Shown here piece by piece: positions 6,091-23,153 of a stretch of 35,667 bases of DNA; the first letter of the stretch is position 1; the number at the start of each line of letters is the position of its first letter. The notes under the pieces were generated by a model. It had not been told where the DNA came from and did not search any database. It saw only the letters and a list, made by a program, of their open reading frames with translations. This DNA comes from a virus. The stretch lies in UHGV virus genome UHGV-0093623, one strand, 5' to 3'. The position numbers and the translations under genes were made by a program.

Positions 6091-6314
6091 TGTTGGTCTC
6101 CTGTGGGCTTGTCATCTTCTGTATTCGCTAGACTTGGGTGTGTATATGGAATGCTCGGATCCAGATGACAAAGAATGGCAACATCCTCCGGAACACCTCG
6201 CGTTTTCCACTTTCCAACACCTTGACTGCCACGAGGCCTTCCTTTCTTTGGGAACCTGCGACCAATAGCGGCATTGGTTTTAAATTGAAATTTTAATATT
6301 TCATAAAGGGTCAT
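6087..6314 (-). CDS. hypothetical 75-aa ORF in the cro position
   Basis: ATG about 30 nt downstream of the predicted rightward promoter; stop overlaps the Rha ATG (ATGA); protein is Lys/Arg/Gly-rich with no obvious HTH. Confidence 0.3.
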   Translation of the reverse strand: MTLYEILKFQFKTNAAIGRRFPKKGRPRGSQGVGKWKTRGVPEDVAILCHLDPSIPYTHPSLANTEDDKPTGDQQ

Positions 6315-6330
6315 TCTTTAGTCTCACACC

Positions 6331-6418
6331 AGATACTTTGTTATCCAACGATGTTAACCGCGGGAATCCAAAGTATCAAGAAATTCTGTTACTTTAGTAT
6401 CAACAGCCATGAGAGGAG
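6331..6418. promoter_or_regulatory. divergent early promoter/operator region (OR-like)
   Basis: minus-strand TTGATA-N17-TAACAT (plus 6374-6379 and 6351-6356); three copies of a GTATCA-core motif (6332-6340 inverted, 6369-6377, 6396-6404); cI RBS GAGAGGAG at 6411-6418. Confidence 0.5.
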
Positions 6419-6425
6419 AAGAAAA

Positions 6426-7082
6426 ATGAAGTCTTTAGGTGAACGTCTCATCAACGCACGGCAAAAAGCTGGGTTAACACAAGATGCGTTGGCTAAAAAA
6501 GCTGGGATCACCAGAGTTGCAATCAGTAAAGCCGAGCAAGGCCTTACAAAAAGTTTCAACGGTGACACCCTTTTTAAAGTTGCAGCTGCACTGCGGTGTT
6601 CACCGCAGTGGCTTCAGAACGGAGATGAAAAAGATAAGCATTGGGAAAATAATGTTAAGAGCTGCCCACAGAGAGACACAGCACACTCTTACCCTGTAAT
6701 TAACTGGGTTCAGGCAGGATTATTCGCAACTTCTGGTGATGACTACAACATGTATGATCAGGATAATTGGAGGCATTCTGTAAAATACGCTGGTGAGAGG
6801 GGGTTCTGGCTGGAAGTGCACGGAGACTCAATGACTTCGCCCGTAGGAATAACATTTCCTGAAGGAATGTCGATCCTTGTCAACCCAGATAAAGAAGTTT
6901 TTTCAGGGTGTTACGTCATCGCCAGAAAAAAATCCACCAATGAAGCAACATTCAAAAAATATATTTCTGACATGGGAAAGGCGTTTCTAAAGCCCCTTAA
7001 TCCACAATATCCAATCATAGAAATGGACAATGATTGCGAAATAGTAGGTGTTGTGGTTGATGCCAGGTGGGATATTTTCTGA
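6426..7082 (+). CDS. CI-like prophage repressor (HTH_XRE + S24 LexA-like peptidase)
   Basis: HTH LTQDALAKKAGITRVAISKAEQG; C-terminal GDSM and downstream Lys (ARKK); start chosen at ATG 6426 with RBS. Confidence 0.85.
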   Translation: MKSLGERLINARQKAGLTQDALAKKAGITRVAISKAEQGLTKSFNGDTLFKVAAALRCSPQWLQNGDEKDKHWENNVKSCPQRDTAHSYPVINWVQAGLFATSGDDYNMYDQDNWRHSVKYAGERGFWLEVHGDSMTSPVGITFPEGMSILVNPDKEVFSGCYVIARKKSTNEATFKKYISDMGKAFLKPLNPQYPIIEMDNDCEIVGVVVDARWDIF

Positions 7083-7108
7083 CCAGACACAAAACACAAA
7101 AAGAAACC

Positions 7109-7181
7109 AAAGTATCAAAAATCACTTGCCACACCTTGATACCTTAGTTACCATAAAACAAAGTTCGTAACTGAGGTATCA
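7109..7181. promoter_or_regulatory. OL-like operator/promoter region downstream of cI
   Basis: GTATCAA at 7112-7118, inverted TTGATAC at 7136-7142, GGTATCA at 7175-7181; TTGCCA-N17-TACCAT at 7126-7154. Confidence 0.4.
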
Positions 7182-7185
7182 TCTC

Positions 7186-7689
7186 ATGATCAATAAAGCT
7201 ACAACTCTTGACTGTCTCGAAGAACTGAAAAACCTCGGCAGCCTCATTACACTAATAGCAAAAGCAACACCTGATGCTACGCTCTCTAGCGATATAGAGT
7301 CATGCGCAGGACTGGCATGGGATATGACAAATAGCATATCCAGAAAGCTATCGTCAGCAATGCTTTTACAGAACAAAAATTCTGCAATCAACAACCGTCT
7401 TCGCACCCAACGCGAAGCCTGCGGCTTAACAACCGCCGAACTCGCCAGGCTGCTCGATCTCGATGAAGAAATTATCATCCAGTGGGAGAGCGGAGAGTAT
7501 GAACCAACTATCAGTATGCTTATCCCACTGGCAAATATTCTTGGCTGCGATCCGATGTGGCTGTTAACTGGTGAGGTTACTCCTCCGGAGCAACCAAAAA
7601 GTGAGGAGCAGCAACACCATGACGCATCTCAACAAGTTTGCCCCTTATCTCGCGAAGCTCTTCTGCGGAAGAACCAATACCAATGGTGA
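7186..7689 (+). CDS. HTH_XRE-domain protein (167 aa), first gene of the leftward operon
   Basis: HTH segment LTTAELARLLDLDEEIIIQWESGEYEPTISMLIPLANILGCDPMWLLTGE; GAGGT RBS; true start could be an internal Met. Confidence 0.6.
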   Translation: MINKATTLDCLEELKNLGSLITLIAKATPDATLSSDIESCAGLAWDMTNSISRKLSSAMLLQNKNSAINNRLRTQREACGLTTAELARLLDLDEEIIIQWESGEYEPTISMLIPLANILGCDPMWLLTGEVTPPEQPKSEEQQHHDASQQVCPLSREALLRKNQYQW

Positions 7690-7817
7690 CATAATCGCCG
7701 CTTCGCCCTTCAAGGTACATGCGAACATTTTTATCAATCATTGCGGAAACAGTCTCAATATGAAAACACTTCTGAGACTCGCTATATAGCAGAACATATA
7801 AGTCAGCTGAGGAAGCC

Positions 7818-8183
7818 ATGAAAAAGTTCGAAAACATAACTGTTCTCCATGTTGATGACTTTGATTATACAAACCCGGAACTTCTCCCGGAGGTTGTAAA
7901 GGCAATAGATGTTGCCGATATAGTGATTAGAGAAAAGAGAATTGTCAAAAACAGGCTCGCATGCACTTCAGGAGCAATGACAGAAACAACCTCACAGCAA
8001 GATAATTACGAAGGCATTTGTCTGGAGCCTGATTCATTTGCGGTAAATGTTTATCATTTATTGCATGCAACACAGGTATTACATATGTCCAGTAATCACG
8101 AAACGAAAACACTCGGCAGCGAAATTCTGAGTTTTGCATGTGAGTATACAAAAGCTGCTGCCGAAAAAGAATTAGCGCAATAA
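7818..8183 (+). CDS. hypothetical 121-aa protein
   Basis: GAGGA 4 nt upstream of ATG. Confidence 0.6.
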   Translation: MKKFENITVLHVDDFDYTNPELLPEVVKAIDVADIVIREKRIVKNRLACTSGAMTETTSQQDNYEGICLEPDSFAVNVYHLLHATQVLHMSSNHETKTLGSEILSFACEYTKAAAEKELAQ

Positions 8184-8377
8184 CAACAAATATGCCCTGA
8201 ACGTTTATTGCGGTTTTATCGCCGGGGATTGTTACAACCTTAATCCACAGGAGGCTTTATTGTGACTTTTATAAAGAATATGGCATCACACAAGACCGCC
8301 TGCCTTATTGCACAATACGGTGAAAATTACATGCATATTGCCTGCTTATTTCTGCGTAAAGCATACGGGAGATAATA

Positions 8378-8578
8378 ATGCATCAGAAAACAGCAGAACA
8401 CGAACAAACCAGAGTATTGCTGACCATCAAAAACGGGAAAGTAATATTCATTCGCCATGTTCATGACGATGAACTTGTAGGAACTCTTTCAACATTCCTG
8501 TTTATTGCAGAAAGGGCAGGATATGACGTTATTGCACCAGCAGATGAAGATGAAGATGAAGATGAAGATGAGGAATAA
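8378..8578 (+). CDS. hypothetical 66-aa protein with poly-acidic C-terminus (DEDEDEDEE)
   Basis: GGGAGA RBS; 5 nt before the next gene. Confidence 0.55.
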   Translation: MHQKTAEHEQTRVLLTIKNGKVIFIRHVHDDELVGTLSTFLFIAERAGYDVIAPADEDEDEDEDEE

Positions 8579-8583
8579 ATATC

Positions 8584-9165
8584 ATGCAATACGATGAATT
8601 CCAGGCTGAAGCAACAGCCAATGGTATACGAACTGGCAGTATGACGATTGATTATCACGACGCCATACGTCGTCTGGATGCCGGAGAATTCGATACTCCT
8701 AATGTGCGAGGTTTACGTATCCTTCAGTGTCTGGCGCAAGCCGACGAAGCAGGATTACTGGGTAAACTTCCGGTTGAGATGAAGGTTGCTCAGTGGCGAT
8801 GGTTGTATGTGACGACATTCATCAACGAAGAAGAAGACAAGAACGGCACAATTGATATCCTGAATGAACACGGAACAACTGAACACGCCGTGGTATATAA
8901 CGGGATGTATGGGTTTATGACGATATATCCCGGCCCCATTCGATTTGCCTTACAACAGTATATTGAATGGAATTTAATTCAAAAATACGGCGAAGCTGAA
9001 GGAATGGGAAGAGCGCTGTTTCTTTATCAGAAAATGCTCACTACTTCCCCTGATAAAGGTTTCATTCTTTCAGATATGGGTCGAGAAGGGCTTGAAATCC
9101 TTCTGGATGAAATTATTAACGAAATGAATACTCATGGCATGCAATCCGAAACAGATATTAAGTAA
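8584..9165 (+). CDS. hypothetical 193-aa protein
   Basis: GAGGA RBS inside the upstream gene tail. Confidence 0.6.
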   Translation: MQYDEFQAEATANGIRTGSMTIDYHDAIRRLDAGEFDTPNVRGLRILQCLAQADEAGLLGKLPVEMKVAQWRWLYVTTFINEEEDKNGTIDILNEHGTTEHAVVYNGMYGFMTIYPGPIRFALQQYIEWNLIQKYGEAEGMGRALFLYQKMLTTSPDKGFILSDMGREGLEILLDEIINEMNTHGMQSETDIK

Positions 9166-9175
9166 AAGGGACCAC

Positions 9176-9424
9176 ATGACCGTTATCGAGTATATCCAGG
9201 AAAATCCAGATTGCAGTAGAGAAGATATATCCCTCGCACTTGGAAGAAGCGCAACTTCTATCAGTAATGAATTATCACGGTTATTGTGGAATGGGTTAAT
9301 AGTACGAACTGGAGAAAAAAACAAAATGATTCTGTACTGCGTAAACAATCTGCCGTTTGGATACAGCAATCCCCTAAGTGTTATGTTCAACCAGTTACTT
9401 AAACAGGTAAGAAATGGCAACTGA
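9176..9424 (+). CDS. hypothetical 82-aa protein, possible winged-helix DNA binding
   Basis: AAGGGA RBS 5 nt upstream of ATG 9176. Confidence 0.5.
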   Translation: MTVIEYIQENPDCSREDISLALGRSATSISNELSRLLWNGLIVRTGEKNKMILYCVNNLPFGYSNPLSVMFNQLLKQVRNGN

Positions 9425-9731
9425 CTCACAACTAACCATAGAAACGGCCCTGAATGTCGGCCTGGCGCTCCTTGGTTATTTTTACATCGTGTTCTGCAGC
9501 GGACGGTGGCTGTCGCTGTTGTTCCTGAAAAAATGGAATAAACGCCGTAAGCAGGATGAACGCCAGAAGGCAATGAATGCGTTTTCCGAAGCCTTCGGAA
9601 TTGACGGCATGGAACCAGGGGATCCAGCTCGCGCAATCAGCAGAGGGGGTGTAGTAATCCTTGTATATCGGAGTGAAGAGAAAAATGACGATCACAAAAC
9701 AACGAGTAGAAAAAATCATATATCGCCATGA
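9414..9731 (+). CDS. hypothetical single-pass membrane protein (105 aa)
   Basis: hydrophobic segment ALNVGLALLGYFYIVFCSGRWLSLLF; overlaps neighbours on both sides. Confidence 0.4.
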   Translation: MATDSQLTIETALNVGLALLGYFYIVFCSGRWLSLLFLKKWNKRRKQDERQKAMNAFSEAFGIDGMEPGDPARAISRGGVVILVYRSEEKNDDHKTTSRKNHISP

Positions 9732-9999
9732 AATGGGACTGAACAGCGATGTCACTGCCGAAGAGGTTTATGACCTGGCTGTACTGGCGCTGAATTTATC
9801 AAATATCGCAAACCTGAAGCGATACGAGCTTGATATGGATGGTTGCGACTCGTGCGGTCAGGATTGTGGCGCAGATATGACTGAAGATCCTGATGGTGAT
9901 TATGTCCTGTTTGATGACGTGGTTAAGTTGTTTGAATTTGATACAACCACTCAAAAGTTAGAAATCCCGGCAAAGGAGGCTGCCAGTGAGCAAGATTGA
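9685..9999 (+). CDS. hypothetical 104-aa acidic protein
   Basis: ATG 9685 preferred over the TTG at 9661. Confidence 0.5.
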   Translation: MTITKQRVEKIIYRHEMGLNSDVTAEEVYDLAVLALNLSNIANLKRYELDMDGCDSCGQDCGADMTEDPDGDYVLFDDVVKLFEFDTTTQKLEIPAKEAASEQD

Positions 10000-10168
10000 C
10001 TATCAGGCACTGCGCGAGGCGGCGGAACAGGCAACGCAAGATGAATGGGTAGCATATATTTGCCGGGTCATAACGGCATTTATCCTGCGCGCACGTCTGA
10101 GGGTAGGCATTGCGGATACTTTATTGACTGGCCTGGCGTCTGTCAGGGGCGGGAGAGCATCAACATGA
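9986..10168 (+). CDS. Ea22-like N-terminal module, truncated (60 aa)
   Basis: GTG start preceded by AAAGGAGG; N-terminus MSKIDYQALREAAEQA parallels the gene at 10668; stop overlaps the next ATG. Confidence 0.45.
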   Translation: MSKIDYQALREAAEQATQDEWVAYICRVITAFILRARLRVGIADTLLTGLASVRGGRAST

Positions 10169-10671
10169 GCATCAGAACCTACGCAGTGAATTGCAATGAC
10201 GCATGGCTAAACACCGAAGGTGATGACATCTCCGGCTCATACGTTAAGTACAAAGACCATCAGGAAGTGGTTGCCGCTCTTGAGGCCAAGTGCGCGGCGC
10301 TGGCAGCGGAGAATGCGGGAATAAAGTCTGCAATTCCAGAATCACGGGATATTGAAGATGACAATGACAATATGGATGACGTATCTCTCGCGGAAGACTT
10401 CGGGTTCAATCATGCAATAGAACGGATGAGGAGACAGATACCTGAAACGCCAACCACTGATGCTTTCCTGGCTGAAGTCCGGGCGCAGGGGGTGGATGCT
10501 GCTATAGAAGCTGCAAAAAATCTGGTGGCCCAAGAATATGAGTATAAGGATTTCAAAGCGGCGCAGAGTGATTGCTGTATGTACCCTGGTTCAGACCTGG
10601 TAGGGAAGGTTGAAATGACTGAGTGGTTAGTTGACTTTGCTGCCCAGCTTCGCAAAGGAGGCAACCAGTGA
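10165..10671 (+). CDS. hypothetical 168-aa acidic protein
   Basis: ATG 10165 with GGGAGAG upstream; ATGA overlap with the preceding ORF. Confidence 0.5.
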   Translation: MSIRTYAVNCNDAWLNTEGDDISGSYVKYKDHQEVVAALEAKCAALAAENAGIKSAIPESRDIEDDNDNMDDVSLAEDFGFNHAIERMRRQIPETPTTDAFLAEVRAQGVDAAIEAAKNLVAQEYEYKDFKAAQSDCCMYPGSDLVGKVEMTEWLVDFAAQLRKGGNQ

Positions 10672-11333
10672 GCGAAATTAATTACCAGGCACTGCGTGAG
10701 GTGGCGGAACGTGCAATTCCAGCAATGGAACGCCTGTTAATGTTGCCAGCTGATGATGACTTGTTAAGTGAACAGGAACTTAAAGATTACGGTGTGGATA
10801 TTGATGCGCTCAACGCCTTCAAATTTCTGACCGGACCAGAAACCGTGCTGGCACTGCTGGATGAACGGGAAAGAAACCTGCAATACATCAAAAGCCGCGA
10901 TCAGGAGAACGAGGATATTGCGCTAACGGTAGGGAAGCTGCGTGTTGAGCTGGAAGCAGCAGAGAACAACCTTATTGATAGTGAATGCCATGTTGCTGAA
11001 CTGGAAGAAGCGCTACGCGATAAGCAGGCGTTACTTGAAGCCTCAGAAAAGCGCATAGCAGAACTGGAAGCACGGGAAATAAAACCAGCCAAAGGCGAAG
11101 TTCTTGTCGTTGTATCTGGTTTTACTGGTTGCGGAAAAAGCGCCATTGCCGGGGAAATAGAAATCGCGATGAAGGCTATTGGTGTACCGGTTAAGTGGAC
11201 TAATGGCGATGCAGAAAAGCGCATGACTGGCGCTGACTGGCTGACAGCGATTGAGATGTACAAACCAACTGTGCGCATCGTGGAAGTTAATGTGCCACGC
11301 GCCGCTGGCATTCGCATCAAAGGAGGTGAGTAA
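10668..11333 (+). CDS. Ead/Ea22-like protein
   Basis: GTG start with AAAGGAGG RBS; N-terminus MSEINYQALREVAERA; TVLALLDERE motif; coiled-coil centre. Confidence 0.65.
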   Translation: MSEINYQALREVAERAIPAMERLLMLPADDDLLSEQELKDYGVDIDALNAFKFLTGPETVLALLDERERNLQYIKSRDQENEDIALTVGKLRVELEAAENNLIDSECHVAELEEALRDKQALLEASEKRIAELEAREIKPAKGEVLVVVSGFTGCGKSAIAGEIEIAMKAIGVPVKWTNGDAEKRMTGADWLTAIEMYKPTVRIVEVNVPRAAGIRIKGGE

Positions 11334-11509
11334 TGCGTGTGGCATGTATCGGCTTGTTACCGTACCCGACTCGTTTTTGGGCTTCTGCGCTAATTGCAAA
11401 GCCACATGTCCTGATGGCTGACAACATCATCCCGGCACCAAAGCGCCGCCATACCGGTATTGCATCGGCACGACGAGCAGCAAAGAGACGCAGGAGAGCA
11501 AAACGATGA
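11333..11509 (+). CDS. hypothetical 58-aa basic protein
   Basis: not in ORF track (under 60 aa); AGGAGG RBS 6 nt upstream; TAATG and ATGA overlaps with flanking genes. Confidence 0.4.
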   Translation: MRVACIGLLPYPTRFWASALIAKPHVLMADNIIPAPKRRHTGIASARRAAKRRRRAKR

Positions 11510-11697
11510 AAAACCGTAAAGCAAAGATTCTGTTAGTTCGTAGAAACGCTCCTGGCGTCTGGCAGTGGGTGAGACTCAGCAACCGACGGATGGGGTTAAT
11601 GAAACATTACGGGATGATGGATTGTGGTTTTTGCAAAAAGCCCAGCGCGGCGCAAAACCGCTGGAAAAACCACTGTCGCATTAATAAGGAAAACTGA
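11506..11697 (+). CDS. hypothetical 63-aa Cys/His-containing protein
   Basis: AGGAGA RBS; ATGA overlap. Confidence 0.5.
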   Translation: MKNRKAKILLVRRNAPGVWQWVRLSNRRMGLMKHYGMMDCGFCKKPSAAQNRWKNHCRINKEN

Positions 11698-11698
11698 T

Positions 11699-11962
11699 AT
11701 GGCAACTTTGACAAAAAAAGAACAGGCATGGTTGAACGAATTACAGGACGTTCTTGATCGCTGCCCATCACCGAAAAAAATTGGTTTTTACACCATTGGC
11801 GATAAAAGCATTTACCTGTATGACCTGCGCCGCATGGATGAAATCATGGAGGCTCTTGATAATCGTTCGTCAATGGATTGGTGTGTTGCTGTCCATGATA
11901 TGAATGCAGGGTTTGATGAAAAGATTTTGTTCCCCTCATCAGTTGAAAGCACTGCGGGTTAA
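11699..11962 (+). CDS. hypothetical 87-aa protein
   Basis: ATG 11699 with AAGGA upstream. Confidence 0.55.
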   Translation: MATLTKKEQAWLNELQDVLDRCPSPKKIGFYTIGDKSIYLYDLRRMDEIMEALDNRSSMDWCVAVHDMNAGFDEKILFPSSVESTAG

Positions 11963-11972
11963 GGAGTAACAC

Positions 11973-12140
11973 ATGACCACTATTACCAAAGAACGTATTG
12001 AATTGTTCATTAAAAACCCGCTTGAAAACGGGCTTACCCGTGGTGAACAAATGGAACTGGCACGGATTGCGCTGGCATCGCTGGAAGCAGAGCCGGTTGT
12101 GTTCTGGTTTGAAAAATATCAAGAAGGGGCTACGGCATGA
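11973..12140 (+). CDS. hypothetical 55-aa protein, paralogous at its N-terminus to the next gene
   Basis: not in ORF track; AAGGAG RBS 6 nt upstream; MTTITKERI vs MTTFTREQL; ATGA overlap with 12137. Confidence 0.5.
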
Positions 12141-12481
12141 CGACTTTTACCAGAGAGCAGTTAATAGCTCACGCAGAGGAGACTATTGAAGCACAGAGAC
12201 TGTGCATACCGGGCACAATCGACCATGACATCATCCGCACATATAAGATGGATATTGCTGTTCTGGAAATCGCACTGGTATCGCTGGCAGCAGAGCCAGC
12301 CGGTAAATTGCATGAATACAAACCAGTGGGATATCAGCGTCTGGTCGATGAGTTAACCATGCTGGTAAAGCAGTTAACCTGGCAACTGAGGAAAGCGAAG
12401 CCAGACTGCAAATTACCGGATAAGGCGATGAGTTATCTGGAGCGGAACGGACTGATAAGCGTGGAGGATATTTTACGATGA
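12137..12481 (+). CDS. hypothetical 114-aa protein
   Basis: ORF track; ATGA overlap. Confidence 0.6.
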
Positions 12482-12561
12482 CCTGGCCTGAAGCATTAAC
12501 AACGGTAGGAATTGCGATGGCGGTGGCGCTGGTGGTGTATTCGATTTGCCGCTGGGGATAA
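12478..12561 (+). CDS. candidate 27-aa hydrophobic peptide ([27 protein letters not shown])
   Basis: ATGA overlap with the upstream stop; GGAGGA 9 nt upstream; single predicted TM helix. Confidence 0.3.
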
Positions 12562-12659
12562 AAACGGTTTGCGGGAAAAGGAGAGTTAAGTAGAATTGCA
12601 GCGGGTGCTTGAGGCTATCTGTCTCAGGCATGAACACCAAAAGGCAGATAGAGAAAAGC

Positions 12660-14510
12660 CCCAGTTAACATTACGCGTCCTGCAAGACGCTTAACATTAA
12701 TCTGAGGCCAATTTCATGCTAGACACATGTAGGTTAGCCTCTTACGTGCCGAAAGGCACGGAGAAGCAGGCTATTGTTAACACCAAGCTGTAATGTCCCC
12801 TTTGAACCATTCTAAAATGTCCCCAGACAATTCTCTGGGGGATTTTTCATGATCAAAGAGACTGTTACGATGAGTCATAAGGAACTCCACCGACTTCAGA
12901 TTATTCAGGAACAAGCTGCGGCACGCATTGGCATTTCTATTCGGCAGGTTAAACGTCTGGTGCAACGGTATAGAAATGAAGGGCCTTCTGCTCTGGTTTC
13001 CCACCGACGTGGAAAGCGTCCTAATAATTCCTTTTCTACTGAATTCAGAGCAACAGTAATTTCACTCCTCAAAGGCCGTTACGCTGATTTTGGACCTACG
13101 TTTGCGTGCGAAAAATTGCGCGAGATACACGGTTTATCTTTATCCGTTGAAACTCTCAGAAAGTGGATGATAGAAGAGGGGTTATGGCGTGAACGCCGTC
13201 GTAAAATTGCCCGTATATATCAACGCCGCATGCGACGACCATCTTACGGTGAACTGATCCAGATTGATGGCTCACCTCATGACTGGTTTGAAAATCGAGG
13301 CCCCAGATGTACACTGATCGTTTTCATTGATGATGCCACCAGTGCGTTGATGGCGTTGCGTTTTGTGCCTGCTGAAACAACCCGGGCTTACATGGAAACC
13401 CTCCGGGGTTACCTTAATGATCATGGCGTACCGCTCGCTCTCTACTCTGATAGACACAGTATATTCAGGGTAAATAACCCAGAGCGGGAAGGTGAGCTGA
13501 CCCAGTTCACTCGTGCGATAAAGACACTGGGCATCGAGCCAATCCATGCCAACAGCCCGCAGGCAAAAGGGCGGGTAGAGCGCGCCAATCAGACACTACA
13601 GGACAGGCTGGTCAAAGAAATGCGGCTTCAGAATATCAGTGATATTGAAACAGCAAATGCATGGTTGCCGACCTTTATTGAAGCCTATAACAACCGGTTC
13701 GCTACGTCGCCTCGTACTACTGATAATGCTCATCTTGATGTGCACCATTCTGAAGAGGAACTGGGTTATATCTTCAGCCTACAGGCGAAGCGCGTTCTGT
13801 CTAAAAATCTCACTTTCCAGTACAAAAGCAGTGCGTTTCAGGTACGCAGTGAGGGCCGGGGATATCGACTTAGGCATTCGGTTGTTACTGTATGCGAGAA
13901 CTTTGACGGTGAAATTAACGTTCTGTATGACGGGAAAGCGCTGGGCTGGGAAAAGTATGTTGATGGCCCGGAGCCTATACCACTGGATGATGAAAAGAGT
14001 GTCCATGAACGAGTGGATAATGCCCGTATTGATTTACGCTCAAAATACTATGTTAAACCTAAAGCTGACCATCCCTGGCTTACGCGCCGAACGCAAAGTC
14101 ATCAGCAAGTTAAGCCCCCGAAGTTACCTAAAAAGAAGCCTGATCCCGATAAAAAAGATTGAAACCAAGATCGATTCGGTTGAGTGCATATCCATTCATA
14201 GGGTAGATTCTTAAGTCGCGTTTCTGGTGTTCATTTTCGGGTGGTTTGTTACTTGTTTTACCGGGGATATGCCAGAAACGCGCTGAGTCAGTCTGGGCGG
14301 TGCGCGTAATGAGGCGTTATGGTAAATAGCCTATGCTAATGTCCGCTAAGAGCAAGAAGCGGAAGTTGGCAGTTTTGTGGACTGTCCCCACAAAAGTGAC
14401 TACAGAAATAGTTGCAATTCATAATTGATCATGGGTTGTCAGTTAAACTCGTGGCGATTTAAATAGACTAATTGGGAGTGCGTCCATTACTTATATCTTG
14501 TAATGTTAAC
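12660..14510. mobile_element. insertion sequence (approximate extent) carrying the DDE transposase
   Basis: candidate 12-bp terminal inverted repeat AGTTAACATTAC near 12663-12674 and its reverse complement near 14499-14510; boundaries not verified. Confidence 0.25.
12849..14162 (+). CDS. DDE-type transposase (N-terminal HTH + integrase-core fold), IS481/ISNCY-like
   Basis: 437 aa; N-terminal HTH region, central acidic residues in IQIDGSPHD and FIDDATS; family assignment tentative. Confidence 0.8.
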   Translation: MIKETVTMSHKELHRLQIIQEQAAARIGISIRQVKRLVQRYRNEGPSALVSHRRGKRPNNSFSTEFRATVISLLKGRYADFGPTFACEKLREIHGLSLSVETLRKWMIEEGLWRERRRKIARIYQRRMRRPSYGELIQIDGSPHDWFENRGPRCTLIVFIDDATSALMALRFVPAETTRAYMETLRGYLNDHGVPLALYSDRHSIFRVNNPEREGELTQFTRAIKTLGIEPIHANSPQAKGRVERANQTLQDRLVKEMRLQNISDIETANAWLPTFIEAYNNRFATSPRTTDNAHLDVHHSEEELGYIFSLQAKRVLSKNLTFQYKSSAFQVRSEGRGYRLRHSVVTVCENFDGEINVLYDGKALGWEKYVDGPEPIPLDDEKSVHERVDNARIDLRSKYYVKPKADHPWLTRRTQSHQQVKPPKLPKKKPDPDKKD

Positions 14511-14598
14511 TATCAGAAATGATACAAAGATAATATGTCTTTAAAGAAAAGGCTGATGGCGAAAAGTGGCCCGATGAGGGCCACAATACGGCTGTCAC

Positions 14599-14931
14599 TT
14601 AGACGTAAATATCAATGGTGCCAGCGGTATTTGTATCGTCTTTTTTCTCTTCTTTTTTATCAGGCTGAACTGTCGCGTCTTCATTCTTTTTCTCTGCCTG
14701 CTGCCTTAACAACTGCTCCAGTTGAGCCCAGAGGCTTTCAATTTGCTTCTGTACCAATGCAGCCATTTCTTTTTTCTGCTGTGTCGTCATCCCCTCTTCC
14801 GATGAGATTTTCCCAAGCTTTTCAGTCAGCACCTGAATTTGTCTTGTGATTTTGGCTATTTCTGATGTTCCTTCCGGGGCGGAGTTGTTTGAAATAACGG
14901 TTGAGGTATTTCCCTGAATTGTGACAGACAT
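14599..14931 (-). CDS. flxA: FlxA-like protein (110 aa)
   Basis: protein recognised as Qin-prophage FlxA-like; preceded by a consensus sigma-28 promoter. Confidence 0.8.
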   Translation of the reverse strand: MSVTIQGNTSTVISNNSAPEGTSEIAKITRQIQVLTEKLGKISSEEGMTTQQKKEMAALVQKQIESLWAQLEQLLRQQAEKKNEDATVQPDKKEEKKDDTNTAGTIDIYV

Positions 14932-14954
14932 AGATTTCTCCTTTTAAAAAAGCA

Positions 14955-14981
14955 CTATCGGCATGCACAAAAAAATCTTTA
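14955..14981 (-). promoter_or_regulatory. sigma-28 (FliA) class 3 promoter TAAAGATT-N11-GCCGATAG
   Basis: reverse complement of plus 14955-14981 matches the TAAAGTTT-N11-GCCGATAA consensus; sits about 25 nt upstream of the flxA ATG. Confidence 0.7.
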
Positions 14982-15133
14982 ATCGTATTTCTTGTGTCAT
15001 TAATTGTTTGATGTTCAGATTGTTTTCCTCGCGGGCTGGCGCGCCTCAGAAAGTAAAGCTTGTTGACAGGGGTAAACGTTCGGCAATAATTTTCTGCCGC
15101 ATGCGGGTGTTGCATAAAACGTGTTACGTTCCT

Positions 15134-15439
15134 TTATCGACAGGTCAGGTCACCGCTCACCCGCCGACGAGAAAGCAACACTGACATGCTAAAGCAAAAA
15201 ATAGATGAATAAGTTGAGTTGTGCATATGTAGCCTGACCGTCACAAAGTATATGGTGTCTGTACCAGTAAGATGATGGCCGGACTCTTTAAAAACGAGCT
15301 GACCTGCACAATACAGGATGGACTTAGCAATGGCTGCTCCTGGCACAAAGCGGACAGTGATCACCGTTCTTACGACTACTTTCTGACTTCCTTCGTGACT
15401 TGCCCTAAGCATGTTGTAGTGCGATACTTGTAATGACAT
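15134..15439 (-). CDS. hypothetical 101-aa protein (YdfV-like position)
   Basis: ORF track; position between flxA and relB as in Qin; no motif. Confidence 0.35.
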   Translation of the reverse strand: MSLQVSHYNMLRASHEGSQKVVVRTVITVRFVPGAAIAKSILYCAGQLVFKESGHHLTGTDTIYFVTVRLHMHNSTYSSIFCFSMSVLLSRRRVSGDLTCR

Positions 15440-15452
15440 TTGTAATTACAAG
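15427..15452 (+). promoter_or_regulatory. relBE operator/promoter inverted repeats
   Basis: cttgtaatgacatttgtaattacaag directly upstream of the relB ATG. Confidence 0.7.
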
Positions 15453-15463
15453 AGGTGTAAGAC

Positions 15464-15703
15464 ATGGGTAGCATTAACCTGCGTATTGACGATGAACTTA
15501 AAGCGCGTTCTTACGCCGCGCTTGAAAAAATGGGTGTAACTCCTTCTGAAGCGCTTCGTCTCATGCTCGAGTATATCGCTGACAATGAACGCTTGCCGTT
15601 CAAACAGACACTCCTGAGTGATGAAGATGCTGAACTTGTGGAGATAGTGAAAGAACGGCTTCGTAATCCTAAGCCAGTACGTGTGACGCTGGATGAACTC
15701 TGA
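15464..15703 (+). CDS. relB: RelB antitoxin
   Basis: 79 aa, MGSINLRIDDELKARSYA... recognised as E. coli RelB. Confidence 0.95.
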   Translation: MGSINLRIDDELKARSYAALEKMGVTPSEALRLMLEYIADNERLPFKQTLLSDEDAELVEIVKERLRNPKPVRVTLDEL

Positions 15704-15990
15704 TGGCGTATTTTCTGGATTTTGACGAGCGGGCACTAAAGGAATGGCGAAAGCTGGGCTCGACGGTACGTGAACAGTTGAAAAAGAAGCTGGTTGAAGT
15801 ACTTGAGTCACCCCGGATTGAAGCAAACAAGCTCCGTGGTATGCCTGATTGTTACAAGATTAAGCTCCGGTCTTCAGGCTATCGCCTTGTATACCAGGTT
15901 ATAGACGAGAAAGTTGTCGTTTTCGTGATTTCTGTTGGGAAAAGAGAACGCTCGGAAGTATATAGCGAGGCGGTCAAACGCATTCTCTGA
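15703..15990 (+). CDS. relE: RelE mRNA interferase toxin
   Basis: 95 aa, MAYFLDFDERALKEWRKLG... recognised as E. coli RelE; 1-nt overlap with relB. Confidence 0.95.
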   Translation: MAYFLDFDERALKEWRKLGSTVREQLKKKLVEVLESPRIEANKLRGMPDCYKIKLRSSGYRLVYQVIDEKVVVFVISVGKRERSEVYSEAVKRIL

Positions 15991-16061
15991 ACCAAAGCAT
16001 GACATCTCTGTTTCGCACCGAAGGTGACACTTCTGCTTTGCGTTGACAGGAGAAGCAGGCT

Positions 16062-16217
16062 ATGAAGCAGCAAAAGGCGATGTTAATCGCCCTGATCGTC
16101 ATCTGTTTAACCGTCATAGTGACGGCACTGGTAACGAGGAAAGACCTCTGCGAGGTACGAATCCGAACCGGCCAGACGGAGGTCGCTGTCTTCACAGCTT
16201 ACGAACCTGAGGAGTAA
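16062..16217 (+). CDS. hokD: Hok-family small membrane toxin HokD (RelF)
   Basis: 51 aa MKQQKAMLIALIVICLTVIVTALVTRKDLCEVRIRTGQTEVAVFTAYEPEE; not in ORF track (under 60 aa). Confidence 0.9.
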   Translation: MKQQKAMLIALIVICLTVIVTALVTRKDLCEVRIRTGQTEVAVFTAYEPEE

Positions 16218-16285
16218 GAGACCCGGCGGGGGAGAAATCCCTCGCCACCTCTGATGTGGCAGGCATCCTCAACGCACCCGCACTT

Positions 16286-16312
16286 AACCCGCTTCGGCGG
16301 GTTTTTGTTTTT
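16286..16312 (+). terminator. intrinsic terminator after hokD
   Basis: aacccgc-ttcg-gcgggtt followed by a T-run. Confidence 0.6.
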
Positions 16313-16433
16313 ATTTTCAACGCGTTTGAAGTTCTGGACGGTGCCGGAATAGAATCAAAAATACTTAAGTAGCGCGCAGGGATAAGAGGGATGGTCCCTT
16401 AAAGGGGAGAGCTAATTATCCGGAAGGATTCTG

Positions 16434-16685
16434 ATGATGAACATCGAAGAACTGCGTAAAATTTTTTGTGAAGATGGCCTCTATGCTGTGTGCGTTGAAA
16501 ATGGAAATCTTGTTAGTCATTACCGCATTATGTGTTTGCGAAAGAATGGGGCTGCGTTAATTAATTTTGTGGATGCTCGGGTCACGGACGGATTTATCTT
16601 GCGCGAAGGTGAGTTTGTCACTTCATTACAGGCATTGAAAGAGATCGGAATAAAAGCTGGCTTTTCTGCTTTTTCAGGAGAATAA
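16434..16685 (+). CDS. rem: Rem-like small protein (83 aa)
   Basis: position and length as Qin rem; weak recollection of sequence. Confidence 0.6.
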   Translation: MMNIEELRKIFCEDGLYAVCVENGNLVSHYRIMCLRKNGAALINFVDARVTDGFILREGEFVTSLQALKEIGIKAGFSAFSGE

Positions 16686-16751
16686 ACTCATCTACAATCT
16701 TGCGCGGGGCTGAACTCCCGCTGAGTAACACCGTGCCACCGGAGAAAACCG

Positions 16752-17030
16752 ATGGCACGCAACGCAAAATATTACAATTCTGATAATTCGCCCGTTCTTG
16801 CCTGCACGCACGGGCGGTATTCTCACGCATTCAAGTCTGAATGGTTCCGGCACCCTCCATGCACTGCAGAACAGGCCGAATGGCTGATTCATTCTTACCG
16901 CAGGCGCGGGTTCGAGGTTAAGAAAGCTCTCAGTCTCGACTATCGGCACTGGATAATCTCTGTCAGGCTGCCTTATTCCGAACGCCCACCACGTGCGTCC
17001 CGCACTTTCCAGCAACGGATCTGGAGGTAA
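16752..17030 (+). CDS. hypothetical 92-aa protein
   Basis: GGAGAAAA RBS; stop abuts the ydfU-like GTG start. Confidence 0.45.
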   Translation: MARNAKYYNSDNSPVLACTHGRYSHAFKSEWFRHPPCTAEQAEWLIHSYRRRGFEVKKALSLDYRHWIISVRLPYSERPPRASRTFQQRIWR

Positions 17031-17031
17031 C

Positions 17032-18081
17032 GTGCGGGTATTACTTAGACCTGTTCTGGTGCCTGAGCTTGGGCTGGTGGTCCTTAAGCCGGGCCGTGAA
17101 TCCATACAGATATTTCATAATCCTCGAGTGCTGGTGGAACCGGAACCAAAAAGCATGCGTAATCTGCCATCCGGAGTCGTTCCTGCCGTTCGCCAGCCGC
17201 TGGCGGAAGACAAAACATTGCTGCCGTTTTTTAGTAACGAACGGGTGATTCGTGCTGCTGGCGGCGTTGGCGCATTGTCCGACTGGCTATTACGTCATGT
17301 TACATCCTGCCAGTGGCCTAATGGCGATTACCATCACACTGAAACAGTCATTCACCGTTATGGTACCGGCGCAATGGTGTTGTGCTGGCACTGCGACAAC
17401 CAACTGCGTGACCAGACATCGGAATCACTGGAGCTGCTTGCTCAACAAAATCTGACAGCATGGGTGATTGACGTCATCCGTCACGCAATAAGCGGTACGC
17501 AGGAGCGGGAATTATCTTTGGCTGAATTATCCTGGTGGGCGGTCTGCAATCAGGTGGTGGATGCACTACCTGAGGCTGTATCGCGTCGTTCGCTGGGATT
17601 ACCAGCGGAAAAAATCTGCTCGGTGTACCGCGAAAGCGACATCGTACCGGGAGAGCAGACCGCCACCAGCATATTGAAACAACGCACAAAAAATCTTGCA
17701 CCGTTGCCTTACGCCCACCAGCAACAAAAATCACCACAGGAAAAGACGGTGGTAAGCATCACCGTTGATCCAGAGTCTCCGGAATCTTTCATGAAGCTGC
17801 CTAAACGTCGCCGCTGGGTTAAGGAGAAATACACACGTTGGGTTAAGACACAGCCGTGTGCTTGCTGCGGTATGCCAGCCGACGATCCGCATCATCTGAT
17901 TGGTCACGGGCAGGGCGGAATGGGAACAAAAGCACATGATCTCTTTGTGTTGCCTTTGTGCAGAAAGCATCACAACGAGCTGCATACGGATACAGTGGCA
18001 TTTGAAGATAAGTATGGCTCCCAACTGGAGCTGATATTTCGTTTTATCGATCGCGCGCTGGCAATTGGCGTACTGGCGTAA
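17032..18081 (+). CDS. ydfU: DUF968-type protein, YdfU-like (349 aa)
   Basis: GTG start with GGAGGT RBS gives 349 aa; Cys/His-rich C-terminus CACCGMPADDPHHLIGHG...CRKHHNELH. Confidence 0.7.
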   Translation: MRVLLRPVLVPELGLVVLKPGRESIQIFHNPRVLVEPEPKSMRNLPSGVVPAVRQPLAEDKTLLPFFSNERVIRAAGGVGALSDWLLRHVTSCQWPNGDYHHTETVIHRYGTGAMVLCWHCDNQLRDQTSESLELLAQQNLTAWVIDVIRHAISGTQERELSLAELSWWAVCNQVVDALPEAVSRRSLGLPAEKICSVYRESDIVPGEQTATSILKQRTKNLAPLPYAHQQQKSPQEKTVVSITVDPESPESFMKLPKRRRWVKEKYTRWVKTQPCACCGMPADDPHHLIGHGQGGMGTKAHDLFVLPLCRKHHNELHTDTVAFEDKYGSQLELIFRFIDRALAIGVLA

Positions 18082-18094
18082 GTGGAGAACGAGC

Positions 18095-18847
18095 ATGAAC
18101 CTTGAAGCCTTACCAAAATATTACTCCCCAAAATCTCCAAAATTGAGCGATGACGCTCCAGCGACAGGCACCGGTTGTTTAACAATTACGGATGTAATGG
18201 CAGCGCAGGGGATGGTGCAGTCGAAAGCACCACTTGGGTTGGCCTTATTTCTGGCAAAAGTTGGTGTTCAGGACCCTCAGTTTGCGATTGAAGGCCTGCT
18301 AAATTACGCGATGGCACTGAATAACCCGACATTGAACAAATTGAGTGAAGAAATCCGGTTACAGATTATTCCTTACCTCGTGAGTTTTGCCTTTGCTGAT
18401 TACTCCAGGTCTGCGGCAAGTAAGGCTCGCTGTGAGCATTGTTCAGGTACGGGATTTTATAATGTATTGCGCGAAGTGGTGAAACACTACAGACGCGGGG
18501 AATCTGTAATCAAGGAAGAATGGGTGAAGGAACTATGTCAGCATTGCCATGGTAAGGGCGAAGCCAGCACAGCGTGCAGAGGGTGTAAGGGTAAAGGGAT
18601 TGTTCTGGATGAAAAAAGAACCCGGTTTCATGGCGTACCGGTATATAAGATTTGTGGGCGTTGTAATGGAAACCGGTTTAGTCGTTTACCGACCACGCTG
18701 GCACGACGTCATGTCCAGAAGCTGGTACCAGACCTGACCGATTATCAGTGGTATAAGGGGTATGCGGACGTCATTGGTAAACTGGTAACAAAGTGCTGGC
18801 AGGAAGAAGCATACGCGGAAGCGCAATTGAGGAAGGTGACGAGATAA
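18095..18847 (+). CDS. quuQ: late-gene antiterminator Q-like (250 aa)
   Basis: Cys-rich zinc-binding region CEHCSGTG...CQHCHGKGE...CRGCKGKG...CGRCNGN; position before the lysis genes. Confidence 0.8.
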   Translation: MNLEALPKYYSPKSPKLSDDAPATGTGCLTITDVMAAQGMVQSKAPLGLALFLAKVGVQDPQFAIEGLLNYAMALNNPTLNKLSEEIRLQIIPYLVSFAFADYSRSAASKARCEHCSGTGFYNVLREVVKHYRRGESVIKEEWVKELCQHCHGKGEASTACRGCKGKGIVLDEKRTRFHGVPVYKICGRCNGNRFSRLPTTLARRHVQKLVPDLTDYQWYKGYADVIGKLVTKCWQEEAYAEAQLRKVTR

Positions 18848-18878
18848 ATGATTTTTGCTGAAGATGGCGACATGATGT

Positions 18879-18907
18879 TTGCATTTTTCAAAAAATATGG
18901 ATAAAAT
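18879..18907 (+). promoter_or_regulatory. candidate late promoter (PR'-like) TTGCAT-N17-TAAAAT
   Basis: sigma-70-like hexamers about 30 nt downstream of the Q stop. Confidence 0.45.
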
Positions 18908-18952
18908 TTTTTCAACGATGGGCTTTGTATACCCGACGTTAAGAAAAAGTAG

Positions 18953-18983
18953 AAAACCCGCTGATGAGCGGGTTTTGTGCTTT
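18953..18983 (+). terminator. intrinsic terminator (tR'-like)
   Basis: aaaacccgc-tgatga-gcgggtttt then gtgcttt. Confidence 0.55.
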
Positions 18984-19268
18984 AAATGGGGCAATGGTAA
19001 TGTTGAATCTCATCCCGGGACTCATGTCTGTTAACTTATTATTTAGCTGGTGACTTGGTTATTTGCCTGATGTTTAAAATGTTTTCTTCCAGTACAATGT
19101 CCCTAAACACAATGAGTCTGCTTATTATATTATTAGCAGAGCTATTACGGCCAAAGTACAGCATAAGCTTTTAAAGCCAATCAACCAGTCATCAAGACAG
19201 ACGGGGTTATTCATAAAAACTCTCCATGTGTGATCCGATGGGGCCTGAAATTAAAGCTTTAATATAGC

Positions 19269-19481
19269 TCATGAAAGGTAAACATTGGCAGCTGAAGGGC
19301 CACGCAGACCATTTATCCGGCAAAATTCCACGCGTAATCCGGTGGTAATTTCTTCTGCATCGCGGAGATTGAGCGCTGAAACATGAAGCTGGACATCGAT
19401 ACGACCATCGGATGGGGTGATAAGACCCTTGCCGCTTTTGCCGTCAAAGGTTTTGACAATTCCTGTCATTTTACGGGACAA
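19269..19481 (-). CDS. cspF: cold-shock-domain protein CspF
   Basis: 70 aa, CSD fold, [19 protein letters not shown]. Confidence 0.85.
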
Positions 19482-19781
19482 AAAAATTCCTTAATACTGA
19501 TAACTTGGCGCACTATACACACGTTCCTGAAGAAAGCTATAGTTTTTTGATGGGGTTGAAGATGGCTGGATGTCTAAAATAAACATTGCTTCATATGTTC
19601 AACTATGCGTTAATGATTGCGTCGGTTTGAAGAACAGACGATATACGAAGTAGTTTACTAAAGCAGTTCTCATTTCAGGTGTTATTCACTTATTCCTTCT
19701 TTGAGTCTCTCCAATTAAGTACGAAGTCGTTTCTGTTATGCAAACCATTTATGCCGAAAGGCTCAAGTTAAGGAATGTAGA

Positions 19782-19997
19782 ATGTCAAATAAAATGACTG
19801 GTTTAGTAAAATGGTTTAACGCTGATAAAGGTTTCGGCTTTATTTCTCCTGTTGATGGTAGTAAAGATGTGTTTGTGCATTTTTCTGCGATTCAGAATGA
19901 TAATTATCGAACCTTATTTGAAGGTCAAAAGGTTACCTTCTCTATAGAGAGTGGTGCTAAAGGTCCTGCAGCAGCAAATGTCATCATTACTGATTAA
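19782..19997 (+). CDS. cspB: cold-shock protein CspB
   Basis: 71 aa, [21 protein letters not shown]... with RNP motifs. Confidence 0.9.
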
Positions 19998-20277
19998 AAT
20001 TCATCGCTCGTCTGTATACGATAACGAAGAAGGCTGATGCCTGAGTAGAGATACGGACAGAGTAGTGAATATTGGATCTCTTTAATAAAAAGTAAGGAGG
20101 TCCAATACATGAAACAATGGCTAGCATATTTGGCAAAATCTTAATCAGGAAAAGTATGCTAACCATTGTGGTGAAGTGCAGGTTTGCTGCATGAATAGTT
20201 TTACAGCAGAAGCTAACTGCTGGCATGGCAAAACAAAGTGCGTAAGTGGATGACTCCCACAAAAAGCACCACAATCT

Positions 20278-20301
20278 CAAACCCGCTCAGGCGGGTTTTT
20301 T
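20278..20301 (+). terminator. intrinsic terminator
   Basis: aaacccgc-tcag-gcgggtttttt. Confidence 0.5.
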
Positions 20302-20360
20302 ATTATCTGCTTTAAATATATTATTAAAATATAAAAAATACTTGTTACTAATAAAATCAA

Positions 20361-20531
20361 TCAGGCTACAGCTTTAAGATTTGTCTGGAATACTTTGTTG
20401 CAATGAGGGCAGATCAAAAGGGCACCTTTTTGTACTCTTGAAAAACTGTGTTCTGACTCTTGGGTGCAGTTTGGGCAGGAACATTTAACGAGATAATTAC
20501 GGCGTGATTTTGAGTTTTTACGTTCTGACAT
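20361..20531 (-). CDS. small zinc-ribbon protein (56 aa from internal ATG)
   Basis: CxxC...CxxC (CPNCTQ...CPHCNK); AGGA 9 nt upstream of ATG 20531. Confidence 0.5.
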   Translation of the reverse strand: MSERKNSKSRRNYLVKCSCPNCTQESEHSFSRVQKGALLICPHCNKVFQTNLKAVA

Positions 20532-20750
20532 AGGCTTTTCCTGTATAAATGGCCGTATACAGTACACTAAATATGAAAACATTTCTCGTATTATTATTTT
20601 ATATATGACTTTCTTTCAAAATAATTACCCACATTTTTAATGTGTATGTTTTTTTAGCGCCGTTGAGAACAACGTGTGCTGTCAAAACTACCCCGTAGAC
20701 TCCGAGCTTTTCAAACATATTGCACCATCCGTGTACATCGGGGTGAGGAT

Positions 20751-20966
20751 ATGAAATCAATGGATAAGTTAACAACAGGTGTTGCCTATGGCACATCGGC
20801 GGGTAATGCTGGTTTCTGGGCATTGCAGTTACTCGATAAAGTAACTCCGTCACAGTGGGCTGCAATCGGTGTGCTGGGTAGCCTGGTTTTTGGCCTGCTG
20901 ACGTATCTGACAAATCTTTATTTCAAGATTAAAGAAGACAGGCGTAAGGCTGCGAGAGGAGAGTAA
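20751..20966 (+). CDS. essQ: class II holin (pinholin, S21-like) with dual start MKSM
   Basis: 71 aa; GAGGA RBS; two hydrophobic helices; adjacent to a SAR endolysin. Confidence 0.85.
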
Positions 20967-20970
20967 TCCA

Positions 20971-21278
20971 ATGACTCAAGACTATGAACTGGTTGTGAAA
21001 GGAGTCCGTAATTTTGAGAATAAAGTTACGGTAACTGTAGCCTTACAGGACAAAGAACGCTTTGACGGTGAAATTTTTGACCTGGATGTCGCCATGGACC
21101 GTGTTGAAGGAGCTGCGCTGGAGTTTTATGAGGCAGCAGCCAGAAGGAGCGTCCGGCAAGTCTTCCTGGAAGTAGCAGAAAAATTGTCAGAAAAAGTTGA
21201 GTCTTATCTGCAGCATCAGTACTCCTTTAAGATTGAAAATCCTGCCAATAAGCACGAGCGTCCTCATCATAAATATCT

Positions 21279-21282
<4 letters not shown>
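20971..21282 (+). CDS. ydfR: DUF1327-type protein, YdfR-like (103 aa)
   Basis: position between holin and endolysin as in Qin; length match. Confidence 0.7.
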
Positions 21283-22306
<1,024 letters not shown>

Positions 22307-22882: not shown

Positions 22883-23087
22883 GGTAGACAATATTACAAA
22901 CCATATTCACTTTAGATGCCCGTGTTGTCATGGTTCCCAGTATAGAACATCATCTTTTGATGTTTCTGACATGAATCCTTTCGGGGCAAAATGTATCTTT
23001 TGTAAATCAATGATGATTACATTTGATAATATTTCACAATACTTAAATGCCAGCCGTCTGTCGTTGGATTTAAAAAAGTGAAAATGA

Positions 23088-23109: not shown

Positions 23110-23153
23110 GCTTGGTGTCTATTCGATGGGTACTCACATACTACGGTAACATC

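Follow-up and report, generated by a model that had tools for sequence, protein, structure and literature searches.

A relBE-carrying IS1202-family transposon in a split hok locus did not create the neighbouring joint of two Escherichia coli prophages, which most likely arose in assembly

What brought two prophage halves of opposite polarity together in one stretch of viral DNA? The stretch analysed here is the virus genome UHGV-0093623 (35,667 nucleotides, called the window below). It carries the early region of one lambdoid prophage of Escherichia coli, which we call prophage A, followed by the later part of another, Qin, and a gene for a DDE transposase stands close to the place where the two meet. 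The initial annotation took this place for a junction bounded by an insertion sequence (IS), and proposed either two juxtaposed prophage remnants or an IS-associated inversion or deletion. Our results refute the IS-based interpretation. The juxtaposition is most likely an assembly artefact and otherwise an ordinary inversion by homologous recombination. What is new here is the extent, the cargo and the apparent hok preference of an element from a known IS family.

The origin of the window bears on every structural claim made from it. The window is a whole contig (ERZ827524 NODE_842 in ENA) of a short-read, SPAdes-style metagenome assembly with a k-mer coverage of 10.872038 (about 11x), and the NODE_842 record is 100% identical to window positions 668-21333. 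Since the contig is a short-read metagenome product, it is possible that no cell contains the join of prophage A and Qin; in the contig as such, the back-to-back meeting of two E. coli prophage halves is real. Gene tables and profile matches (NCBIfam, Pfam, Rfam) confirm that the replication genes lie on the minus strand and the late, lysis and morphogenesis genes on the plus strand, as had been described. The gene tables covering the window list no integrase gene and no exo/bet/gam genes, again in agreement with the initial annotation. The map departs from that of a canonical single lambdoid prophage: genes of the pL side lead into the nin, Q and late genes, the replication genes point the opposite way, and int and xis are missing. 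The comparison sets were 5,426 complete E. coli genomes, IMG/VR contigs and an assembly collection.

The first step is to see what the transposase gene belongs to and what surrounds it. The features concerned are as follows.

12561-12774, plus strand: hok/sok leader (sok/mok region), severed from the hok open reading frame (ORF)
12760-12774, plus strand: left copy of the target-site duplication, 15 bp, GGAGAAGCAGGCTAT, reaching from the hok Shine-Dalgarno sequence to the first two bases of the start codon
12775-16048, plus strand: transposon of the IS1202 family (ISEsa1-like), 3,274 bp, consisting of the left terminal inverted repeat (IRL), the transposase gene (tnp), flxA, ydfV, relB, relE and the right terminal inverted repeat (IRR)
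12775-12804, plus strand: IRL, TGTTAACACCAAGCTGTAATGTCCCCTTTG, which begins TGTTAAC
12816-12824: second AATGTCCCC box
12849-14162, plus strand: DDE transposase, 437 amino acids, ORF intact, NCBIfam NF033594 transpos_ISNCY_2
14599-14931, minus strand: flxA, a passenger of the transposon, Pfam FlxA E = 2.3e-14; it is also found inside a plasmid copy of the transposon
15134-15439, minus strand: ydfV, a passenger, named from the annotation of homologous loci
15464-15703, plus strand: relB, Pfam RelB E = 1e-32
15703-15990, plus strand: relE, Pfam ParE_toxin E = 2.2e-13
16019-16048, minus strand: IRR, …GCTTTGCGTTGACA, which ends GTTGACA
16049-16063, plus strand: right copy of the 15-bp duplication, GGAGAAGCAGGCTAT
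16062-16217, plus strand: hokD ORF, the other half of the split hok locus, Pfam HOK_GEF E = 1.2e-23

The sequences on the two sides of the transposon are the two halves of one hok locus, standing in the same order as in uninterrupted loci. On the left, the Rfam sok model RF01794 is matched over its full length at 12603-12775 (110.5 bits, gathering score 59, E = 2.4e-25), and the match stops exactly where the similarity to intact hok loci ends; the intact hok loci of AREA_486 and PRO_A-1490 run colinear with the leader. On the right, hokD is 97.7% identical to the hok ORF region of AREA_486. The sok/mok leader and the Hok ORF are both present and are split by an insert of 3.27 kb. The 15-mer GGAGAAGCAGGCTAT occurs as a single copy in uninterrupted hok loci, and in the window two perfect copies of it flank the transposon. 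The transposon was inserted in the translation-initiation region of a prophage hok gene and a 15-bp duplication was made. The same insertion with the same flanks is found, as part of Qin, in at least 781 complete E. coli genomes. The transposon is a standard resident of Qin with undisturbed flanks, and it did not create the joint.

The extent of the element is defined by its two ends. Read in inverse orientation, the right end is TGTCAACGCAAAGCAGAAGTGTCACCTTCG and matches the left end at 22 of 30 positions. For the left 30-mer this match, ending at 16048, is the best inverted one in the whole 35.7 kb (the next best reaches 18/30), and the tips have the form TGT…ACA. Both ends are kept in plasmid and phage copies of the element. 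Inner right ends near 14392, which would give an ISEsa1-like length, and at 14511 were considered and rejected for their poor match to the left end; the repeats in 12300-14700 are weak. The transposase scores 455.7 bits with ISNCY_2 (cut-off 250) over profile positions 7-365 of 368. Pfam HTH_29, HTH_32 and HTH_28 are above their cut-offs, and rve_3, at 24.3 bits, is slightly below its cut-off of 26.5. Close copies are named 'IS1202-like element ISEsa1 family' by PGAP. The right end is occupied by the type II toxin-antitoxin genes relBE; in plasmid copies with other cargo, identical RelB and RelE proteins are encoded at the same end. The transposase belongs to an intact IS1202-family transposon carrying flxA, ydfV and relBE.

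The 3' end of the transposase gene is annotated as ydfW in K-12, annotation in the K-12 style divides the ORF into an 'ISNCY pseudogene' and ydfW, and RefSeq annotates the open transposase ORF as an incomplete pseudogene plus a separate gene ydfW. The exact 437-amino-acid transposase occurs in 1,052 blocks of the assembly collection. Relative to the 446-amino-acid plasmid form (L105, 6075-7415), the Qin-type protein has an in-frame deletion of 9 amino acids (SINRHITQE) in the helix-turn-helix (HTH) region at the N-terminus and one substitution. Prophages contain elements of either length, 3,274 bp or about 3,301 bp.

Could the IS nevertheless have caused an inversion or deletion, with one of its ends as the breakpoint? 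The DDE transposase gene is less than 300 bp from the end of the prophage A homology, and this proximity speaks for such a role. The breakpoints, however, lie left of the IS end at 12775, at a distance of 65-1,010 bp. The two places where the sequence switches from one source to another (11765-11871 and 12643-12710, described below) are 904 and 65 bp, respectively, from the left end of the transposon, and a complete hok/sok leader stands between the end of the prophage A homology at 12561 and the element, so the junction cannot be called IS-bounded. The element moreover has both of its ends and a perfect 15-bp duplication, its flanks are halves of one hok locus, and the identical arrangement recurs in those 781 or more genomes; an inversion or deletion driven by the IS is therefore highly improbable. 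The initial annotation had proposed to define the IS ends and look for target duplications, and had named an intact IS with duplications and unchanged flanking synteny as the outcome that would speak against it. This is the outcome obtained, with ends at 12775 and 16048.

If the transposon is at its usual place, which parts of the window are out of place? Each arm was compared with complete genomes. The remaining features of the two arms are the following.

1-12561, mixed strands: early region of the lambdoid prophage "A"; the DUF4222-xis-int continuation is absent
422-1822, minus strand: DnaB-type replicative helicase of prophage A, NCBIfam TIGR00665 E = 2.8e-92, also Pfam DnaB_C
1819-2727, minus strand: DnaC/IstB-like ATPase (gene table)
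6351-7082, plus strand: cI/LexA-family repressor (HTH_3 + Peptidase_S24), the divergent point of prophage A
16049-35667, plus strand: rest of Qin with rem, ydfU, Q (ydfT), csp, lysis genes, nohA/terminase, portal, capsid and tail genes (annotation, Pfam)

The right arm (12556-35667) is the Qin prophage, agreeing in gene order and closely in sequence with Qin as located at rspB-ydfJ; the contig carries no attachment site or host flank. Positions 12556-31002 form a single 18.4-kb alignment, 99.6% identical to Qin of strain SCU-172, with the gene order kept. In that strain Qin has the canonical order int-xis-exo-dicB-dicA/dicC-replication-nin-transposase-flxA-relBE-hokD-Q-lysis-late genes. The head and tail genes of the right arm are lambda-type. 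The description of a DDE transposase (12849-14162) followed by flxA (14599-14931) of a Qin-like block was correct.

In the left arm, the minus strand carries, besides the helicase and the ATPase, several small ORFs and two Rha-family regulators. From 6351 the plus strand encodes the repressor, a second HTH protein and then accessory genes of the pL side up to 12481, which include DUF4752, three Ead/Ea22-like genes and small ORFs. Positions 1-7571 are 99.9% identical to a yecE-integrated prophage of strain BEC1-S17-ESBL-09, and 9500-11871 has zero mismatches to six isolate copies, all of which continue into M-DUF4222-xis-int, where M is a small module described below. The exact 221-amino-acid Ea22-like protein encoded at 10668-11333 was looked up and found in ten places, one of them the window's own contig. 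The other nine distinct contexts are uniform (9/9): a plus-strand operon runs through M-DUF4222-xis-int to yecE/yecN or mlrA. As all nine run to int, the plus-strand genes of the window are the true leftward (pL-side) operon, and the int/xis end is missing here. Prophage A has at least two attachment sites (yecE, mlrA). Two segments, 10960-11694 and 7572-7730, are missing from the closest complete-genome copy (BEC1-S17-ESBL-09); both occur in other isolate copies, where the segment compared, 10960-11694, shows no mismatch. This patchy presence is ordinary mosaicism in the pL operon.

The idea of two juxtaposed prophages stands to the extent that parts of two prophages are joined and the int/xis end of A is missing; what falls away is an IS as the cause. 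A further explanation is that the window shows the native gene order of a single functional phage. The contig itself is all that speaks for this. For each of the arms there is a different complete prophage of canonical order with 99.6-100% identity, and the hybrid has no int/xis and its arms read away from each other. We regard a native order as vanishingly improbable.

Where, then, do the two prophages meet? The relevant features are as follows.

11695-12561, plus strand: module M, 867 bp, with ORFs of 87, 55 and 114 amino acids and a membrane ORF of 27 amino acids (12478-12561)
11765-11871: switch interval 1, a 107-bp stretch of exact identity where the prophage-A haplotype gives way to the nin-type haplotype of M (mismatch maps; L017-L024 are clean to 11871 and L005 is clean from 11765)
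12643-12710: switch interval 2, 68 bp of exact identity, in the hok leader, from the AREA_486 type to the Qin type (mismatch maps)

At first sight the homology to A ends at 12561 and the homology to Qin begins at 12556. An illegitimate joint at 12556-12560 through a GGAYAA microhomology was considered and dropped, because AREA_486 and 240 other genomes are colinear across this point. The nin region of the lambdoid prophage of AREA_486 is colinear with 11684-12774 at 99.3% identity, across 12556-12561, and M together with hok is colinear in 241 complete genomes. Mapping of the mismatches separates three haplotypes, of which the prophage-A type extends to 11871, the AREA_486 (nin) type covers 11765-12710 and the Qin type begins at 12643. 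Switch interval 1, where the A-specific pL context passes into M, is the sole topologically anomalous joint, and switch interval 2 is a mosaic joint of the ordinary, colinear kind. In an independent contig from another metagenome assembly (ERZ506132 NODE-2229, L028), M is joined without a break to this hybrid leader and to the transposon's left part, with a nin-type region upstream of M, and three IMG/VR prophage contigs have a similar layout. The passage from M straight into the interrupted hok (hok'::Tn) occurs naturally in a colinear nin context (L028, L063, L092).

Module M, whose four small ORFs have no Pfam or NCBIfam match, has two kinds of location: prophage A contains it in its pL operon, and many lambdoid prophages contain it in their nin region. 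Its 114-amino-acid protein is found in 17,296 blocks of the assembly collection. Of the ten contexts shown for this protein, nine are nin regions with hok coming next, and in one a pL operon leads on to DUF4222-xis-int. Transcription of M in prophage A proceeds away from the immunity region, in the direction of int; where M stands in a nin region, its transcription heads for Q and the late genes. The orientation of M relative to the phage polarity is thus opposite in the two settings, and a crossover, or a path of the assembly graph, through M fuses a pL operon to a late region. By being found in a leftward operon and in the nin region, M supplies inverted homology between co-resident prophages. 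A scan of genome contigs for the sequence of 12543-12587 gave one match, L004 (JAJXBQ010000377.1), a 1.8-kb contig binned as a 'Segatella copri' metagenome-assembled genome, which is 99% identical to M and the start of the hok leader. Almost certainly, this contig is a piece of an Escherichia phage that was put into the wrong bin, and it is uninformative on the hybrid.

How did the A/Qin joint arise? We modestly favour a mis-join by the assembler, that is, a chimeric path through the repeat M in a sample that would have contained both prophage A and a Qin variant. M stands in the leftward operon in A and just upstream of hok in Qin-like prophages; the assembler would pass from the M copy of A to that of the Qin variant inside the 107 bp of identity. 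A short-read contig at about 11x coverage and a join seen nowhere else make a mis-join the most likely cause. The switch stretches of 107 and 68 bp of exact identity both exceed a typical k of 55. In none of the 5,426 complete E. coli genomes does a single place cover 80% or more of 11500-16000 or of 9500-13300. No IMG/VR contig joins the A-specific left flank to nin-type M alleles, where the control with the canonical allele yields only 4 contigs and the power is low. In the contexts of the exact transposase, the Ea22-like protein and the 114-amino-acid protein, the hybrid join appears in no contig but the window's own. The window therefore combines what is expected of an assembly chimera: a short-read assembly, a switch within an exact repeat of at least k, and a join that independent assemblies do not support.

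Several points weigh against a mis-join. An exact repeat of 107 bp is normally bridged by 150-bp reads or read pairs, and SPAdes would usually resolve it or break the contig there; that the assembler went through the repeat may mean that the reads truly support the join. The switch consists of one clean crossover and not of the patchwork of alleles that collapsed bubbles might give. Recombination between prophages is a real and well-known process. The chimera is something we infer.

If the joint is real, it could have arisen by RecA-type homologous recombination between M in prophage A at yecE and the inverted M in the nin region of a Qin variant. Such an event would invert about 340-355 kb and would also give a reciprocal hybrid carrying both integrases. 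In three complete genomes (AR_0372, 98198, OZ501684) both arms are present, about 340 kb apart and on opposite strands, so that the M copies would be inverted repeats. A natural Qin-like variant with M directly upstream of hok'::Tn exists, and it would have to share a genome with prophage A. One clean crossover in 107 bp of identity, within homology of about 98.8%, fits such an event, as does the traversal of the repeat by the assembler. On the other hand, the joint is absent from the 5,426 complete genomes and from IMG/VR, and the evidence comes from a single metagenome contig of low coverage. Qin and yecE are, we presume, on the same replichore near the terminus, where an intra-replichore inversion is probably costly. 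We consider an inversion possible and put it below an even chance. A mis-join and an inversion predict the same contig sequence.

The same joint would also result from a deletion between nearby, oppositely oriented prophages in which the M copies are direct repeats; such an event would have taken away the int/xis genes of A, Qin's early region and the DNA between them. The two attachment sites of prophage A (yecE, mlrA) make other layouts conceivable. In every examined genome with both arms, however, the prophages are about 340 kb apart and co-oriented, which makes the repeats inverted, a layout that a deletion does not fit, and a deletion of about 340 kb would presumably remove essential genes. 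A deletion is very unlikely. The mis-join through M remains our preferred explanation of the joint.

What does the transposon do outside the window? The hosts in which its left-end region is found on plasmids (619 records) include Klebsiella, Enterobacter, Citrobacter and Salmonella. A plasmid copy in K. michiganensis carries a cytochrome b gene, a CDF transporter and identical RelB/RelE, and is flanked on both sides by GGAGAAGAAGCCATG in a different hok gene. A copy on an IncF plasmid of E. roggenkampii contains flxA-ydfV-relBE; it has GGAGAAGAAGGCCAT as its flanking repeat, stands in an R1-like hok gene and is preceded on the left by a fragment of mok (annotated as DUF5431). A C. freundii plasmid has an element at the same site with cargo of the cytochrome b/CDF type. 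A K. pneumoniae plasmid copy carries the ncr nickel-resistance genes (ncrABCY). Among the IMG/VR contigs with a left end, 58 of 59 have a hok-type leader directly left of the element. In every hok case the duplication starts at the Shine-Dalgarno GGAG, the transposase gene is co-oriented with hok, and relBE reads into hok. Duplications around plasmid copies in different hok genes are likewise 15 bp long and differ from one another. The same position is used in at least three different hok genes, in a prophage and in IncF-type plasmids (window, L041, L105, L106, L107, L070 and L099 compared). At least three independent insertions at one hok position point to a site preference, and these few junctions suggest that the transposon targets hok specifically.

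Two copies have other flanks. In L070 (IMGVR_UViG_2912051188_000002), a complete copy of 3,301 bp at 1345-4645 stands at a non-hok site with a 6-bp repeat, CGCCTT; this could reflect two modes of insertion, or the repeat could be there by chance. In L099 (IMGVR_UViG_2534681836_000019), the copy at 712-4011 has a different hok-like leader on the left (…GGAGGGGCTATGATG) and the hokD of Qin on the right, the pattern expected after recombination between copies in two different hok loci.

Taken together, the 'IS' could be a member of a previously undelimited IS1202-type transposon family with the structure IRL-tnp-variable cargo-relBE-IRR, which would insert in one orientation into the Shine-Dalgarno/start region of hok genes and which would be the origin of the relB-relE-hokD (relF) operon. 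We rate this at about an even chance. The insertion would duplicate 15 bp, cut hok off from its sok/mok control and place it behind relBE, and such a placement would explain the relB-relE-hokD operon. In the literature searched we found no earlier description of a relBE transposon or of hok targeting, one of the searches having been dominated by word-start matches. A passage in PMC6379469, citing Ramisetty & Santhosh 2016, already notes the integration of relBE into an ancestral hokD locus.

As originally posed, the finding is an ordinary one: a repeat-induced mis-join or one more recombination between prophages. It carries a caution, as small modules like M, present in leftward and rightward operons, can give 'impossible' flips of polarity in cells or in assemblers. 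The 'intK/ydfW pseudogene' region of Qin forms the left end, and relBE the right end, of a complete transposon that splits a hok locus. This offers a concrete mechanism by which relBE may have spread between IncF-type plasmids and prophages, and by which the relBEF operon may have originated. If hok targeting is true, it is a new target specificity in the IS1202 transposase family. If the A/Qin joint is real, it records an inversion of about 350 kb near the terminus, mediated by a small module in opposite operons of two prophages.

Compared with known systems, the right arm has the same order as Qin of E. coli, which in K-12 reads intK/ydfW-ydfX-flxA-ydfV-relB-relE-hokD-rem-ydfU-quuQ. It differs in that another prophage's early region, with reversed polarity, stands where Qin has its own int-xis-exo-dicB-dicA/dicC-replication region, and in that module M is found directly upstream of the hok leader in place of the usual Qin sequence. 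As in prophage-mediated inversions and in repeat-induced chimeric contigs, the switch lies within near-identical sequence shared by two lambdoid prophages.

The transposase is of the same type as those of the IS1202 family (the 'IS1202 group' of ISNCY, with ISEsa1 and passenger-carrying tIS such as ISKpn21), with ISNCY_2 above its cut-off. The element resembles this family in TGT…ACA ends and in a second internal box similar to those bound by transposase; its transposase has N-terminal HTH matches and a putative rve-type core (rve_3 being just under its cut-off in the window). TGT/ACA tips, a class of 15-17-bp duplications in one subgroup and the occurrence of passenger genes have been described for the family (PMC10132070; bioRxiv 10.1101/2022.12.17.520857), and the 15-bp duplication of the window element falls into this subgroup class. 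ISEsa1 is 1,609 bp long and has no detectable duplication (PMC10132070); the unit seen in the window, in contrast, is at least 3.27 kb, always ends with relBE, has variable cargo and recurs at one hok position. IS1202 elements of the ISAjo2/ISAba32 type insert in a fixed orientation beside dif/pdif (XerC/D) sites (PMC10132070). Position-specific, oriented insertion beside a short conserved sequence appears to be common to both, but the target here appears to be the Shine-Dalgarno sequence and start codon of hok and not an Xer site, and the duplication is 15 bp as compared to 5 bp.

The nearest parallel to the split locus is offered by the hok loci and the relBEF operon of E. coli K-12, where hok is parted from its sok/mok control by a mobile element, as in the window. 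In work attributed to Pedersen & Gerdes 1999 and Gotfredsen & Gerdes 1998, chromosomal hok loci are reportedly inactivated by IS elements and hokD is said to be read from the relBE transcript. K-12 no longer has the leader or the transposase gene's left part, whereas the window keeps the leader, both ends of the element and the duplication, and it is for this reason that the element can be delimited here.

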